From the NCBI RefSeq assembly GCF_013122565.1, contig NZ_CP053258.1: DNA of 64,000 nucleotides. The stretch is one strand, 5' to 3'. Below are positions 11,923 to 26,248 of this stretch, in pieces. Source of the DNA: Escherichia coli. GTDB taxonomy: Bacteria; Pseudomonadota; Gammaproteobacteria; Enterobacterales; Enterobacteriaceae. The translations under genes and the position numbers were made by a program. Under the pieces are notes generated by a model, which searched no databases, was not told the origin of the DNA, and saw only the letters and a program-made list of their open reading frames with translations. Position 1 is the first letter of the stretch. The number at the start of each line of letters is the position of its first letter.

Positions 11923-13176
11923 TTACGCACGAATGGTGTAATCACCAATGCCGATCCACTTGTAAGTGGTCAGTGCTTCCAGCCCCATTGGGCCACGCGC
12001 GTGGAGTTTTTGTGTGCTTACCGCCACTTCCGCACCCAGACCAAACTGGCCGCCGTCGGTAAAACGCGTAGAGGCGTTAACGTAAACAGCGGACGAATCC
12101 ACTTCGTTAACAAAACGCTGGGCGTTGCGCATATCGCGGGTCAGGATCGCATCGGAGTGTTGTGTGCCGTGTTCACGAATATGGGCGATGGCATCGTCAA
12201 GATCGCTGACGATTTTGACGTTCAAATCTAATGACAGAAACTCATCGTCATACTCTTCGGCTTTAACCGCCACCACCTTCGCGGGGCCTGTCTGCAACTG
12301 CGCCAGCGCAGCAGCATCTGCGTGTAACGTCACGCCGCTTTCCGCCATTTGCTTGCTTAATGCGGGCAGGAAGCTATCGGCGATGTTTTTATTTACCAGC
12401 AACGTTTCTACCGTATTACATGTGCTCGGACGCTGAGTTTTCGCGTTGACGATCACTTTTAATGCTTCAGCGATCTCTGCACTTTCATCAACGTAAATAT
12501 GGCATACGCCTATACCACCAGTGATCACCGGGATTGTCGACTGTTCGCGGCACAGTTTATGCAAACCAGCGCCACCACGCGGGATCAGCATGTCGATGTA
12601 TTTATCCATACGCAGCATTTCACTGACCAGCGCACGGTCAGGATTATCAATCGCCTGCACGGCACCCGCCGGTAAGCCACAGGATTTCAGGGCGTCCTGA
12701 ATCACCGCCACCGTTGCCGCGTTAGTGCGACAGGTTTCTTTGCCACCACGCAGGATCACCGCATTACCGGTTTTCAGGCACAGCGAAGCGACATCAACCG
12801 TCACGTTCGGGCGCGCTTCATAAATCACGCCAATAACCCCCAGCGGTACGCGACGACGCTCAAGACGCAGGCCGCTGTCCAGTACGCCGCCATCGATTAC
12901 CTGCCCCACCGGATCGGCGAGATTGCACACCTGGCGCACATCGTCGGCAATGCCTTTCAGCCGTGCGGGCGTCAGTGCCAGACGGTCAAGCATCGCTTCG
13001 CTAAGGCCATTGGCACGCGCGTCAGCAACATCCTGGGCGTTAGCGTTGAGGATGATTTCGCTTTGTGCTTCCAGTTCATCGGCGATTTTTTCCAGCACGC
13101 GATTTTTTTCGCGGCTGGAGAGTTGCGCTAATTTATACGAGGCTTGCTTCGCGGCAATGCCCATTTGTTCCAGCAT
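11923..13176 (-). CDS. proA: Gamma-glutamyl phosphate reductase
   Basis: 417 aa full-length match to ProA by recollection ([38 protein letters not shown]...); 11-bp spacing from proB. Confidence 0.95.
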
Positions 13177-19700: not shown

Positions 19701-20315
19701 TTATCCTTCGATAAAAGCCATCCCTGTAAATGTCCGTCGCGGGTTGCCACGTTCAATCTGGTGATGGAACATTCGCCGCTGCGATTTCAGCACCGCGCTA
19801 TTCTCCTGTTGCTGTTGTTCCAGCTTCCAGGCAATCAGCAATCGCGCCAGCCGTTTGTTAGCATGCTGGCTGCGCTCTGACTGAACCTTCACGCTAATAC
19901 CGGATGCCAGATGCGTGGCACGTACCGCCGAGTCGGTTTTATTGACATGTTGACCGCCCGGCCCCGACGAACGCAGCGTCTCATACCGGATCGCATCGGA
20001 TTGCCCCTGCTCATCAGCGGTAAAACGCCCAATGCCCAGAAACCAGTTTTTACGCCCGTGATGTGGGCGATACGGGCTCGGGCAAATCCACTGAATAGTG
20101 CCACACCAGCTTTCGCTTAACGCCCATGCGTTGTCGCCATCCAGAGAAATCAGCGCCGAACGCAGCGTGTCAGAGTAGCGGCCTGTTTCTGTTTCCAGCA
20201 CCGTTACCGCGACGTCTTGTCGGGCAGTTTCTTTAATTAGCCTGTCCAGCGCCTTTTTCACTGCGAGACAACATTCTTCCGGCCCCTGCGCTGAGGAGAG
20301 TTGTAGCAAGATCAT
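19701..20315 (-). CDS. prfH: Peptide chain release factor homologue PrfH (apparently full length, ~204 aa)
   Basis: Starts [19 protein letters not shown]...; contains GGQ motif ([17 protein letters not shown]); ATG overlaps the stop of the upstream RtcB-like gene (ATGA). ORF-track start at 20399 is an upstream extension. Confidence 0.85.
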
Positions 20316-21463
20316 CCTTTTTTCCCTCCACTGTTTTTGAGCGTTAGCACCGGACGCAGTCGCGCGACAGGAATAATTAACCCAGCCTGCACCAGACATT
20401 GCACCACGCTTTCAGCCGATTTATAAGCTTGTGGCGCTTCTTCAAAGATGAGTTGTTTATCGCGACAAATTACCCGGCTGCCAAGTTCAGTACGCGAGAG
20501 TTGCGTCACCGTGTATTTCGCTGCCAGACGCCCTTTACAATCGGTGCGCCCCCATTTACGCCCAGCCCCATGCGCCAGCGAATGCAATGTTTCCTCACTC
20601 CTGACGGGCTGAACCAGCCAGGAGTAATCACCGCGTGAACCGGGAATAACCACCAGACCACAGTCATCAGGCGTGGCACCTTTACGATGTAAGACCCCTT
20701 GTTGATCACCGATTCGACACGCGCTAACAAAGTTATGCGCCACATCCAGAACCGGACTTCCGGTGGCCTTAACCTGTTGCATTATGCGCAAAGCGATCAG
20801 CTGGCGATTAATACGCGCAAACGCCAGCGCATCGTCATGTTCCGCAATATAACGTAGCGCGTCGTCACTGCCTTCAGGCAAACCATGATGCGAAAACGAG
20901 GCAATATGCCGCTGTAAAATAGACTGCCCTAAACCACGCGAGCCGCTATGAACCAACAGTTGCAGATGCTGCGCATCCAGACCTGCCAGTGCAAACAGTT
21001 CAGCGTTGATGATTTGATCAACTTGTTGCAGTTCAGCGAAATGATTGCCGCCACCGATAGAGCCAAGCGAGCTGCGCCACGGATGCTGTGCAAATGCTGA
21101 CGGCAGGTTTTCCTCCAGCCAGCTTTCTTCAGCAACGTCATCCAAAGCTGATAATCGCTTTTCAAACTTATCGGCGTTGTATTTGCGAGCGAGAATATCT
21201 GTTTGCCATAGCGCCATGCCGCAGCCGATATCATTGCCGACCAGTGCCGGGTAAAAACGACCAACTGAGAAGAACGCTGCGCCAATCGGGTAGCCGCGTC
21301 CGGGATGTAAATCTGGCATCCCCACTACGCGCTGCATGTTGGGTAAATTTGCCGTGGTGTGTAATTGTTGGATCGCTAAACTCTCGATCCACAGGTCATC
21401 AGATGCGATGGTAAATACCGCATCGGATAAGGGACGAATATATTTGCCCATGTACCATTCCAT
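20312..21463 (-). CDS. RtcB-family RNA ligase paralogue (RtcB2-like), partner of PrfH
   Basis: 383 aa with RtcB hallmarks ([36 protein letters not shown]...HRKGA); translationally coupled to prfH. Confidence 0.85.
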
Positions 21464-21768
21464 TTATACTCGTCATACTTCAAGTTGCATGTACTGCGAC
21501 TGCGTTCGTTCACCCCAGTCACTTACTTTAGTAAGCTCCTGGCGATTCACTCGCTTGTCACCTTCCTGCAACTCGAATTATTTAGAGTATATAAATATTA
21601 AAAATCAGGAAATGGCAGACGAATCCAGGGCAAGAAAAAAGAATTAATCCTGGAAAGGTCTGCAAAGAGTCATTGATAAAGGATTTGTCATGATTTACCT
21701 CCTTGCAGTTTGTGGAATCAGAAAACGCGCACATACTAGGCGGGCGTTATTTTCATTGCAAGCTGGAT

Positions 21769-22221
21769 TTAATGTTGCGGTTTATATCGCATATAAAAAT
21801 TAGTAAACCACGCACCCCGGCATTCAACGCGCTGCTGCTTAACTGTCTGAAAACCATAACGTTCAAAAAAGGGTTTTGCGGTTATGCTGGCGTCCACCGT
21901 AAGTTCGGATTCAGACTTAATCCAAGGTTTTAACAAAGCACTGGCAACCCCACGGCGGGTGTATTCAGGGTCAACAAATAACATATCGATATAATGTTCA
22001 ATGCGGGAAATAAAACCAACCGGTTGTGCATTAATGACTGCAACCCGCACTTGTGATTTCGCGAGTTTCTCCTTCCAGCGAGATTCGTCAATCTGCGCCC
22101 AGACTGCAATTTGTTGTGGTGAATAATGCTCACTGGCTGTCATCGTAACCGCTCTAATGAAAATAGCGCATAGTTGCTGAAAATCGCCAGGCTGATAGTT
22201 TCTTATTTGTATGTTATTCAT
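21769..22221 (-). CDS. yafP: GNAT-family acetyltransferase YafP
   Basis: 150 aa, [25 protein letters not shown]...; start overlaps dinB stop by 4 nt. Confidence 0.9.
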
Positions 22222-23273
22222 AATCCCAGCACCAGTTGTCTTTCCATTTGAGGGTCAAGCAACGTCACATGCAGCCCCACCAGTCGCACACCGCGCCCGC
22301 CGCGGCGTTCATCCCAGGTTTTACGCGCGGTGGCGATTAGATCAGCTTTATTCAGCCGCGGCCAGACGTGCTCCTGGGTGGTTTGCTGAAAATCGTCGAA
22401 CTTTAATTTCACCCCCTGGCGAGCAATCAGTAAATCAGGTTTTACCTTTGCCAGACGGCGTTCAAGTTCCGGATACAGCCGCTCGATAATCGCTTCACAT
22501 TCAGACCAGTGATGAATATCTTCCGCCATCGTGCGTTCCACGCCGACGGATTTTCGCAACCGTTCGCTGTTAACATCGCGTTCGTCAATCCCCTGACTAC
22601 GCTCCCACAAAATGCGGCCAAATTTGCCAAAACGTTTAAGCAACGTCACCAGATCACACTTTTGTACATCACCGCAGGTCCGCAGCCCCATCGCTTCCAG
22701 TTTTGCCGCCGAGACTTTGCCGACGCCGGGGATTTTTGCCAGTGGTAAGGTTTGTAAAAATGCCGGAACTTCTGCCGGCGTAATCACAAACTGGCCGTTG
22801 GGTTTATTCATGTCGGAGGCGATTTTGGCGAGAAACTTTACTGGTGCCACGCCCGCAGACGCCGTCAGTTGCAGCTCGCTGAAAATCGTCTGGCGGATTT
22901 CCTGGGCGATGAGGGTCGCAGAACCGTGGCAATGGACGCTATCGGTGACATCGAGATAAGCCTCATCCAGTGACAACGGTTCAATACGCGAGGTGTAACG
23001 CGAGAAGATTTCACGGATATGATTTGAGGCTTCTTTGTAGGCGTCAAAGCGCCCCGGAAGCAAGGTGAGATGTGGGCATAATTTGAGCGCCATCCCAGTA
23101 GGCATAGCGCTACGTACGCCAAATTTACGCGCGGGATAATTGGCGGTGCTGATCACCCCCCGACGTTCGCGGCTGCCGCCAATAGCAATAGGGATATCGC
23201 GCAGGGCGGGATTGTCGCGCATCTCCACTGCGGCGAAAAAGCAGTCCATATCCACATGAATGATTTTACGCAT
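22218..23273 (-). CDS. dinB: DNA polymerase IV (Y-family translesion polymerase)
   Basis: 351 aa, [34 protein letters not shown].... Confidence 0.95.
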
Positions 23274-23289
23274 TGCTCACCTCTCAATA

Positions 23290-23305
23290 CTGGTAAAGTA
23301 TACAG
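23290..23305. promoter_or_regulatory. LexA (SOS) box in the dinB promoter
   Basis: CTGGTAAAGTATACAG (CTG-N10-CAG) about 17 bp upstream of the dinB start. Confidence 0.75.
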
Positions 23306-23343
23306 TGATTTCAGGGTTTGAGAAATGCGTAAAGATTCAGCAT

Positions 23344-23979
23344 TTAACGCGTTCGCTGCGAAAGCACCTGCTGCTTATCCAGCTTTTGCACCAGTGGCTG
23401 CACCACTTTATCCCCATGCTGACCAAAGTATTGATACAGCGTATCGGACGCACTTTTGGTCAGCACCATAATCTCAATACGCCGATTGCCCGCACTTTGC
23501 GGATTTTTCGCGTCCAGCAGCATCTGGTCCGCCATTGCGCTTACCTGCATCACTTTATCTTCCGGCATTCCTGCCTCTTCCAACACCCGACGAGCCGAAA
23601 GCGCGCGGTCACCCGAAAGGTTCCAGTTGTTGTAGATATTGTTTTTGTAAGCCATCGCATCGGTATGCCCGGTAATAATAATTTTGTTATCGAGCGAGTC
23701 GAACACTGGCGCGAGCTCCACCAGCAAAGTTTTAAAGAACGGCATAATCTGCGCGCTGCCGCGTTCGAACATATTGCGGTTCTGGTCGTCTTTAATCAGC
23801 ACGCGTAATCCCTGCGGGACAATCTCCATCTCCAGATTCGCTTCCATATGCGCATCACGGGCAATGGTGTTGATACTGGTTGCCAGCTCGCCAAGCTCGG
23901 TGGCGGATTTCTTCTTCAGCAGCGCCGTATTCTCGTTGACGTCGCGCGCTTTTTTCTCCGTCTCTTCCGGCACCGCCAC
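23344..23979 (-). pseudogene. lafU: lafU' remnant: MotB-like flagellar motor protein with OmpA-like C-terminal domain, 5'-truncated (Flag-2 deletion scar); upstream boundary approximate
   Basis: C-terminal OmpA/MotB peptidoglycan-binding domain (ITGHTDAMAYKNNIYNNWNLSGDRALSARRVLEEAGM...NRRIEIMVL); N-terminal part of the 296-aa ORF lacks a MotB-like TM segment. Confidence 0.65.
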
Positions 23980-24073
23980 GGTGGCAGGTTTTGGCGGATG
24001 AGACGGGCTGATTTTATTTAACGGCGACAACCCGCCACCATTGAAAATCGACTGCCCGTGCAGCGCGGCGATA

Positions 24074-25813
24074 ATGCTTTCACGCTCGGATTTACTGACG
24101 CTGTTGACAATCAACTTTATTGTCGTCACCAAAGGGGCCGAGCGTATTTCCGAGGTTTCCGCCCGCTTTACCCTGGACGCGATGCCCGGCAAACAGATGG
24201 CGATTGACGCCGACCTTAACGCCGGGTTGATCAACCAGGCGCAGGCGCAAACCCGGCGTAAAGATGTTGCCAGCGAGGCCGATTTCTACGGCGCGATGGA
24301 CGGGGCATCGAAGTTTGTGCGCGGGGACGCCATCGCCGGGATGATGATTCTGGCGATCAACCTGATCGGCGGCGTCTGTATCGGCATCTTCAAATACAAC
24401 CTGAGCGCCGACGCTGCCTTCCAGCAGTATGTGCTGATGACCATCGGCGACGGCCTGGTGGCGCAGATCCCTTCCCTGCTGCTCTCCACCGCGGCCGCGA
24501 TTATCGTCACCCGCGTCAGCGATAACGGCGATATCGCCCATGACGTGCGCCACCAGCTGCTGGCAAGCCCGTCGGTGCTCTACACCGCCACCGGGATCAT
24601 GTTCGTGCTGGCGGTGGTGCCGGGGATGCCGCATCTGCCGTTTTTGCTGTTCAGCGCCCTGCTTGGCTTTACCAGCTGGCGGATGAGCAAACGCCCGCAG
24701 GCGGCGGAGGCGGAAGAGAAAAGCCTCGAAACGCTGACCCGCACTATCACCGAAACCAGCGAGCAACAGGTCAGTTGGGAAACCATTCCACTGATCGAGC
24801 CCATCAGCTTAAGCCTTGGCTACAAGCTGGTGGCGCTGGTGGACAAAGCACAGGGTAACCCGCTCACCCAACGTATTCGCGGCGTGCGGCAGGTGATTTC
24901 TGACGGCAACGGCGTGCTGCTGCCGGAGATCCGCATTCGGGAAAACTTCCGCCTTAAGCCGAGCCAGTACGCCATTTTCATCAACGGCATTAAGGCTGAT
25001 GAAGCAGATATTCCGGCGGATAAACTGATGGCCCTGCCCTCCAGCGAAACCTACGGCGAGATTGACGGCGTGCTGGGGAACGACCCGGCGTACGGGATGC
25101 CGGTGACCTGGATCCAGCCCGCGCAGAAAGCGAAGGCGCTGAATATGGGGTATCAGGTAATCGACAGCGCCAGCGTGATTGCCACCCATGTGAACAAGAT
25201 TGTGCGCAGCTATATTCCTGATTTATTTAATTATGATGACATCACGCAGTTGCATAACCGTTTGTCGTCGATGGCACCGCGCCTGGCGGAGGATTTAAGC
25301 GCGGCGCTCAATTACAGCCAGTTGCTGAAAGTGTACCGGGCGCTGCTGACCGAAGGCGTTTCCCTGCGCGATATTGTCACCATCGCCACCGTGCTGGTCG
25401 CCAGTAGCACAGTGACCAAAGATCATATTCTGCTGGCGGCCGATGTGCGCCTGGCGCTGCGGCGCAGCATTACCCATTCGTTCGTTCGCAAGCAGGAGCT
25501 GGCGGTGTATACGCTGAATAATGAGCTGGAAAATCTGCTGACCAACGTGGTGAATCAGGCGCAACAGGGCGGCAAAGTGATGCTCGACAGCGTGCCGGTG
25601 GACCCGAATATGCTCAACCAGTTCCAGAGTACGATGCCGCAGGTAAAAGAGCAGATGAAAGCGGCGGGGAAAGACCCGGTGCTGCTGGTGCCGCCGCAGT
25701 TGCGCCCTTTGCTGGCGCGCTACGCAAGGTTGTTTGCGCCGGGGCTGCATGTGCTGTCGTATAACGAAGTGCCGGATGAGCTTGAGTTGAAGATTATGGG
25801 GGCGTTGAGTTGA
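24074..25813 (+). pseudogene. lfhA: lfhA' remnant: FlhA-like flagellar export protein lacking about 120 N-terminal residues (Flag-2 deletion scar)
   Basis: Homology to FlhA begins mid-protein (IVVTKGAERISEVSARFTLDAMPGKQMAIDADLNAGLI...); divergently oriented and overlapping the lafU' ORF. Confidence 0.7.
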
Positions 25814-25849
25814 TGGCTTTTAAGAAACGCAATACGATGACATCAATTT

Positions 25850-26248
25850 ATGACGTCAGGGATTGATAAGATGATGAAAACGCGTTCATTAATATCTCAA
25901 GCATCGAACATTATCACAATTAAAGGTCAACCAGCCGCAGTGACATTTGAAGCCGATATCAACGCATTTCGCGGCAAGTTCCTCAATGTAAACGGTTATT
26001 GTGACTTTGTAGCCACAAGTATTGAGGCATTATATCGTGAAGGCGAAAGCGCGCTGGATGAGTGGATGGCGGATTGTGAAGAGGACGGTATTGCCCCTTT
26101 TCGTGAAGAAGAAGAGCAAAAACGCCTGACGCTTCGTGTTCCTCATCACATTGATTCGCGGCTGACCATCGTCGCCAGACAACATTCCATTTCAAAAAAC
26201 CAGCTCATTATTGATGTCTTAGAACGTGAGTTTTCAGCCCAGATGTAA
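25850..26248 (+). CDS. HicB-like antitoxin-type protein with C-terminal ribbon-helix-helix DNA-binding domain (orphan; no hicA seen)
   Basis: 132 aa; N-terminal HicB-like segment (AAVTFEADINAFRGKFLNVNGYCDFVATSIEALYREGESALDEWMADCEEDGIAPF), C-terminal RHH-like KRLTLRVPHHIDSRLTIVARQHSISKNQLIIDVLEREF. Confidence 0.45.
   Translation: MTSGIDKMMKTRSLISQASNIITIKGQPAAVTFEADINAFRGKFLNVNGYCDFVATSIEALYREGESALDEWMADCEEDGIAPFREEEEQKRLTLRVPHHIDSRLTIVARQHSISKNQLIIDVLEREFSAQM

Follow-up and report, generated by a model that had tools for sequence, protein, structure and literature searches.

Divergent lafU' and lfhA' fragments in an Escherichia coli genome as a probable scar of Flag-2 gene cluster loss

Introduction

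A 64,000-nucleotide stretch of the Escherichia coli contig NZ_CP053258.1 (assembly GCF_013122565.1; hereafter the window) contains two long ORFs that point away from each other and resemble MotB- and FlhA-type proteins. This raises the question of whether they are genes in their own right or the debris of a larger flagellar locus, and of how their junction arose and spread. Because its structure was reportedly published by Ren et al. in 2005, the K-12-type Flag-2 deletion scar is already known, and it is an ordinary textbook genomic scar, although its junction turns up surprisingly widely.

Several papers describe a deletion of Flag-2 between lfhA and lafU, citing Ren et al. 2005 (PMC6993521, PMC3032704, PMC11420993), and identify K-12 fhiA and mbhA as the terminal remnants of Flag-2 (PMC3032704). 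Flag-2 was missing from 76 of 100 E. coli strains, all 76 of which carried the truncated genes, and the same paper, which cites Ren et al. 2005, mentions that the deletion has direct repeats at its ends (PMC6993521). E. albertii lacking Flag-2 has the same 2.5-kb structure (PMC11420993), an ST131 H22 strain was described with remnants of ~1700 bp and 769 bp (PMC5369007), and truncated and intact Flag-2 loci co-occur within species (PMC11420993, PMC6993521).

Domain content of the two ORFs

The two ORFs diverge with overlapping 5' ends, one at 23344–24234 on the minus strand (296 aa) and the other at 24041–25813 on the plus strand (590 aa). Comparison with their full-length homologs confirmed that both are beheaded and lie head to head.

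The sole Pfam match of the 296-aa ORF is OmpA (PF00691, residues 155–248, E=8e-15), the C-terminal OmpA-like peptidoglycan-binding domain of a MotB-type protein. Positions 23344–24111 (minus strand) align without gaps to the intact lafU of E. coli EC1515 (locus L001, 8090–8857), and correspond to codons 53–307 (255 aa plus stop) of lafU (mbhA), the native lateral-flagellar MotB homolog. The fragment, LafU', thus lacks residues 1–52 of 307. Intact LafU reads ...VAFADFTLAMMALFMTLW|IVNS..., and the deletion takes all residues before IVNS, including the transmembrane helix FADFTLAMMALFMTLW. The MotB_plug domain (PF13677) matches intact LafU proteins and not scar proteins: the intact 307-aa form contains MotB_plug and OmpA, the 261-aa scar form only OmpA. 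The N-terminal hallmarks of MotB, namely the single TM helix, its conserved Asp and the plug, are therefore absent from lafU'. The gene-caller start is a GTG at 24129 (261 aa) in lfhA antisense sequence, giving the neo-N-terminus VTTIKL.

The 590-aa ORF matches positions 99 to 656 of the 657-position FHIPEP profile (E=4e-189). Positions 24113–25813 align without gaps to EC1515 lfhA (L001 46176–47876; annotated there as flhA), which encodes 697 aa in its intact form. The 3' remnant of this native lateral-flagellar FlhA, lfhA' (fhiA), occupies 24110–25813 on the plus strand (codons 131–697, 567 aa plus stop), and LfhA' lacks residues 1–130 of 697. A preliminary description of the locus, made from the sequence alone, had recognized the N-terminal truncation of the FlhA homolog correctly but put its size at ~120 residues. 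With the established topology of FlhA, which we take to apply to LfhA, the fragment has lost TM1–TM3 and most of TM4, and keeps the FHIPEP loop, the later TM helices and the cytoplasmic domain; the complete eight-TM N-terminal membrane domain of the FlhA export-gate protein is not present. The gene-caller start is an ATG at 24074 (579 aa) in lafU antisense sequence, with the neo-N-terminus MLSRSDLLTLLT.

The overlapping upstream extensions noted earlier are real, as each ORF continues into the antisense of the other gene, and the gene-caller ORFs overlap head to head by 56 bp (24074–24129). Full-length FlhA or MotB reading frames could not be recovered, as the window does not contain the missing 5' parts.

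Comparison with an intact Flag-2 locus

The EC1515 locus (L001), which carries ~37 kb of flagellar genes between lafU (307 aa) and lfhA (697 aa), served as the intact Flag-2 reference. By blastn, 21566–24115 of the window matched L001 6312–8861 (the dinB–lafU side), and 24101–25824 matched L001 46164–47888 (the lfhA side), both without gaps. These matches share 15 bp of the window, whereas in EC1515 37.3 kb separates them. The deletion is clean, measuring ~37.3 kb; all Flag-2 genes between lafU' and lfhA' are gone, and the fragments abut.

In a three-way alignment of the window with both L001 breakpoints, the breakpoints both read ATC at 24110–24112, a 3-bp microhomology that marks the deletion junction. 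It falls inside the interval of roughly 24040–24120 in which the junction had first been placed. The ATC lies within imperfect 15-bp direct repeats, CTGTTGACAATCCAC on the lafU side and CTGATGATCATCAAC on the lfhA side (11/15 matches), and the window carries a hybrid copy, CTGTTGACAATCAAC, at 24101–24115. Alignment to an intact locus, which the preliminary description had proposed as a check, thus yielded both the 37.3-kb deletion and a short repeat at the junction. The junction was identical in 13 genome alleles and in 23 metagenome loci, the latter on contigs retrieved with a codon-degenerate junction pattern, a less selected sample than finished genomes.

Other loci with intact Flag-2 (EAEC 042 type; EC1515, CREC-591, E11, E18, GN04171 and FAM21845) occupy the same chromosomal site as the window locus, and the 3' parts of their lafU and lfhA are 94–97.6% identical to it. 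What they have and the window lacks is ~37 kb with ~40 flagellar genes, together with the first 153 nt of lafU and the first 390 nt of lfhA.

The divergent remnants had been attributed at the outset to loss of Flag-2 between lfhA and lafU, and domain content, gapless mapping to L001, existing annotations and the literature agree with this. We conclude that the window locus is very probably the canonical scar of loss of the Flag-2 (lateral flagella-like) gene cluster. That the pair instead represents two unrelated truncated paralogs, an assembly artefact, or an ancestral state that later received the cluster is refuted by the L001 mapping and the junction alignment. The window fragments are exactly complementary to the 5' parts of intact loci and together with them restore full-length genes, and thousands of independently finished genomes show the identical junction; we consider these alternatives extremely improbable.

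Genomic context and relatives of the window allele

The scar lies in the E. coli dinB–yafL neighborhood. To its left are dinB (22218–23273, minus strand), the conserved left neighbor of the Flag-2 locus, then yafP and an rtcB–prfH pair; to its right are hicB, yafL (NlpC/P60; 26305–27114, minus strand), the conserved neighbor on that side, dinJ–yafQ and yafK.

The K-12 locus resembles that of the window in that lfhA (fhiA) and lafU (mbhA) are gene fragments in head-to-head orientation with dinB and yafL as neighbors, and its junction sequence, ...GCTGTTGACAATCAACTTTAT..., is identical. The K-12 scar allele is only ~96% identical to that of the window, and the neighboring genes differ: the window has a lone hicB and not rayT, dinB–yafP without yafNO, and an intact rtcB–prfH pair. 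Across 5,426 complete E. coli genomes, the closest scar alleles were 96.1–96.9% identical to the window, with none above 96.9%, and the best identity of the flanking 11 kb of core genes (proBA–pepD) was 98.2–98.4%. These low values indicate that the window lineage is poorly represented among finished E. coli genomes.

Several features of the surroundings were observed in passing. The lone hicB antitoxin gene (25850–26248, 132 aa) lies between lfhA' and yafL, where other strains have either hicA–hicB (~300 bp more) or rayT; because of the former, the hicA toxin gene appears to have been deleted in the window. yafP directly follows dinB with a 4-bp overlap (21769–23273), without the yafN–yafO toxin–antitoxin pair that is present in K-12 and strain 7/2; dinB neighborhoods with and without this pair are both found in E. 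coli, among scar and intact strains. The exact DinB protein of the window is not specific to one state of the locus, as it occurs in 462 blocks and neighbors scar as well as intact loci. Positions 19701–21463 encode an intact rtcB-family RNA ligase (383 aa) and prfH (232 aa, RF-1 domain), a pair reduced in K-12-like strains to the deleted remnants ykfJ/prfH. Further away, 35170–63524 contains a type VI secretion cluster with VgrG, TssM/IcmF, a DotU–OmpA protein and a prePAAR–PAAR–Rhs protein with a deaminase-like C-terminus. Four orphan Rhs C-terminal cassettes follow downstream in this cluster, two of which match nuclease toxin families (Tox-SHH, LHH). An ARAGORN search found no tRNA-Asp between yafV and the type VI island.

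Distribution of the junction

The scar is common in E. coli. A one-piece match covering at least 80% of the region was found in 4,072 of the 5,426 complete genomes, including MG1655 and BL21 derivatives, and only 6 of the 5,426 lack both remnants. Thousands of E. coli genomes annotate the pair as 'LafU' and 'FlhA, incomplete, missing N-terminus'.

A scan of species-representative genomes revealed the identical junction in the E. albertii type strain, Citrobacter sp. MGH106 and Kluyvera ascorbata ATCC 33433. The scar-specific neo-N-terminus TTIKL|IVNSVSK marks truncated LafU proteins in C. gillenii, C. amalonaticus and other Citrobacter and, within Kluyvera, in K. ascorbata and one further member. 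Two of these species, K. ascorbata and C. amalonaticus, additionally have full-length LafU and thus contain both forms. While the truncated loci of E. albertii, Citrobacter and Kluyvera share the window junction to the nucleotide, their flanks have only 78–91% nucleotide identity with saturated dS, an ordinary between-genus divergence. In the Kluyvera scars, Kluyvera-specific bases stand 6 bp from the junction on both sides, those on the lafU side being identical to Kluyvera intact alleles; a recent import of the junction from a different genus is therefore excluded. We also looked for, and rejected, a footprint of patch import across genera: the junction window was among the most conserved in Citrobacter (93%, z ~2.3) and was not so in Kluyvera. 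In the E. albertii type strain NBRC 107761 (L020, 1–2800), phage-like genes, including a tape-measure-like 575-aa ORF, and not dinB flank lafU'.

Scar and intact alleles in E. coli populations

Within E. coli, scar alleles do not separate from intact ones in haplotype space; the two are interspersed, and some haplotypes are common to both. Scar status violated the four-gamete condition with 147 of 353 biallelic sites, one of which lies 9 bp from the junction. Of four intact haplotypes, three have scar twins that are 100% identical over 2,470 nt. 'Virtual scars' were made by fusing both flanks of an intact allele: those of two intact loci (L001 and L015) matched real scars in other genomes at 2470/2470 positions, and that of L016 had a match of 99.2%. 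Over ~9 kb of flank, 0–3 SNPs separate the scar strain Iso00225 from two intact strains. K-12 lfhA' equals the intact lfhA of FAM21845 over 1701/1701 nt, and the lafU' side differs by 24 clustered SNPs. Differences between near-twins consist of 14–211-bp patches of alleles known from other haplotypes; this is short-patch recombination.

The ~130 bp around the junction hardly vary within E. coli. The case for a hitch-hiking valley of diversity there was not convincing, as only ~80 bp were low (pi 0.005–0.017 versus 0.045) and an equally low bin occurred elsewhere. No step in divergence between flank and cluster interior was seen at the breakpoints in the E18 clone, where the region is mosaic throughout. 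Synonymous diversity at the lfhA/lafU flanks (L001–L038) is very high for E. coli and built of short mosaic patches, a sign that recombination around the Flag-2 site may be unusually intense or ancient.

Origin and spread of the junction

In intact strains, the Flag-2 genes lie between dinB and yafL in outward-reading operons ending in lafU and lfhA. The window has lost everything between lafU codon 52 and lfhA codon 131, and the 3' fragments meet at a common ATC. Illegitimate recombination at the imperfect short repeat probably created the junction, which may then have passed between lineages by homologous and short-patch recombination while its flanks were continually exchanged with intact alleles. 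We consider a single origin followed by spread through recombination the probable account, and favor it over a recurrent, sequence-directed deletion, which we regard as considerably less likely.

The twins count against this account: ordinary homologous transfer of a 37-kb indel should bring along SNPs of the donor flank, yet the twins are 100% identical. Transfers around the junction could nevertheless be traceless, because the ~130-bp invariant zone matches the size of the observed patches, and exchange with local intact alleles would homogenize the flanks. Exact scar/intact twins on three distinct haplotypes, the identity of K-12 lfhA' to an intact lfhA, and the 0–3 SNPs between scar and intact strains of one clone are also what would be expected if a hot-spot or site-specific deletion remade the junction on many E. 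coli haplotypes and in E. albertii, Citrobacter and Kluyvera. Each scar would then be young, and its youth would explain ORFs that look selected. The presence of one junction in three genera with Kluyvera-specific bases so close on both sides, the co-occurrence of scar and intact forms within several species, and the conservation in E. coli and Citrobacter of the ATC and of a palindrome on the lfhA side, GATGATCATC, fit the same account.

However, neither a recombinase nor a recognizable recombination site was found, and the junction ranks well below the best available microhomology. In one intact allele, lafU and lfhA have 771 exact 6-mers, 17 9-mers and one 11-mer in common, along with 479 pairs of 15-mers that match at 11 or more of the 15 positions. 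Generic microhomology was rejected as the cause of recurrence, since hundreds of equal or better repeats exist and generic slippage therefore cannot explain the precision of the junction. A pattern for the junction of an excised circle gave 0 matches in metagenome contigs, which is weak evidence against excision, and the short-patch recombination seen at the locus provides a templated alternative. We thus consider deletion directed anew by the sequence in each lineage unlikely, though far from negligible. Similarly tentative, and slightly more doubtful, is the broader proposal that the junction, far from being a single accident passed on by descent, is regenerated by precise sequence-directed excision of the 37 kb; a weaker form has very short-patch recombination copy it out of scar DNA into intact genomes. 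If true, such regeneration or templated copying would act in at least three genera and on many E. coli haplotypes, and would explain the SNP-free scar/intact twins and why most remnants have not decayed.

A separate observation concerns one metagenome contig, X347_Brown_Bear__coassemble_1154 (L053), which contains lfhA with its full 5' part and upstream lfhB, collinear with the intact locus. In the ~100 nt either side of the pattern match at 12446–12477 (minus strand), the native TCATCCTGATGATC is replaced by the lafU-antisense sequence CTGACGCTGTTGACA, with one additional nucleotide and a frameshift; the scar's 15-nt lafU-derived patch thus lies within lfhA, bounded by TTTA and ATC. The gene is an intact/scar hybrid, which could be either an intermediate of templated deletion or a library chimera. 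If it is real, scar DNA invades intact alleles, and a 22-bp perfect repeat with the lafU site would arise. No hybrid lfhA of this type was found in the 5,426 finished genomes.

Decay and constraint of the remnants

Both fragments are now without promoters and start codons of their own and without the N-terminal membrane segments. LafU' and LfhA' are unable to act as stator and export gate and are therefore pseudogene remnants; that they are dispensable and decaying is our best reading.

To this reading the state of the sequences in finished genomes and other assembled contigs is opposed. In a sample of 13 scar alleles and 5–7 intact alleles from different lineages, the sequences of both remnants were gapless and free of internal stops throughout, which is not how a pseudogene long under neutrality would look. 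dN/dS between scar alleles was 0.032 for lfhA and 0.028 for lafU, much like the values between intact alleles (0.022 and 0.035, respectively), at a dS of ~0.2 for lfhA and 0.12–0.16 for lafU. Against Citrobacter and Kluyvera scars, the window had saturated dS (1.2–2.2) with dN of only 0.05 for lfhA' and 0.10–0.12 for lafU', which excludes neutral drift since a single ancient event.

Such values could mean that the remnants are domesticated genes under purifying selection; for example, truncated LfhA, which still has TM5–8 and the chaperone-binding cytoplasmic domain, might modulate flagellar export. The ORFs also remain open in Citrobacter and Kluyvera at ~80% nucleotide identity, very few genomes have lost both remnants, in-frame neo-starts exist, and fhiA mRNA was detected in O157:H7 by qRT-PCR (PMC6863780). 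The less selected metagenome sample, however, contained damaged alleles: 4 of the 18 evaluable lfhA' alleles had different frameshifting deletions and 2 had in-frame deletions, and dinB was intact on the contigs carrying damaged lfhA'. Independent frameshifts in ~20% of metagenome alleles, with a 62-nt duplication in one E. coli assembly (L026) and a frameshifted lfhA' in the E. albertii type strain, argue against domestication. So do the lfhA' start ATG, which is not conserved in Citrobacter or Kluyvera, the closure of the frame upstream of lfhA' in Citrobacter, and the lack in LafU' of a signal sequence or TM helix for reaching the periplasm. A scan for sigma-70 promoters and terminators gave nothing above shuffled expectation.

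Among scars with intact ORFs, private variants were 23N:61S and shared variants 13N:163S (p=3e-5). This excess indicates relaxed constraint, yet is far from the ~3:1 neutral expectation. In an O157-like scar clade the within-clade N/S test yielded only 0–1 SNP, the clade being too uniform. Variation that was inherited from intact alleles, or exchanged with them, accounts just as well for the low dN/dS, because scar and intact haplotypes are interspersed, and we judge domestication very unlikely. On our preferred reading of the remnants as pseudogenes, most of their variation was acquired within functional genes or by exchange with them, and continued exchange of the flanks with intact alleles probably keeps most remnants resembling selected ORFs.

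Significance

For annotation, both ORFs are fragments of the pseudogenes lafU and lfhA, and not a MotB-family protein and FlhA. The window genome is Flag-2-negative, a trait used for sublineage typing, e.g. of ST131. That a single junction is found in three genera and on numerous haplotypes, and that most of the remnants still look selected, may merit separate study. The population pattern leaves the content of the window unaffected, and bears on the spread or recurrence of large deletions in Enterobacteriaceae.
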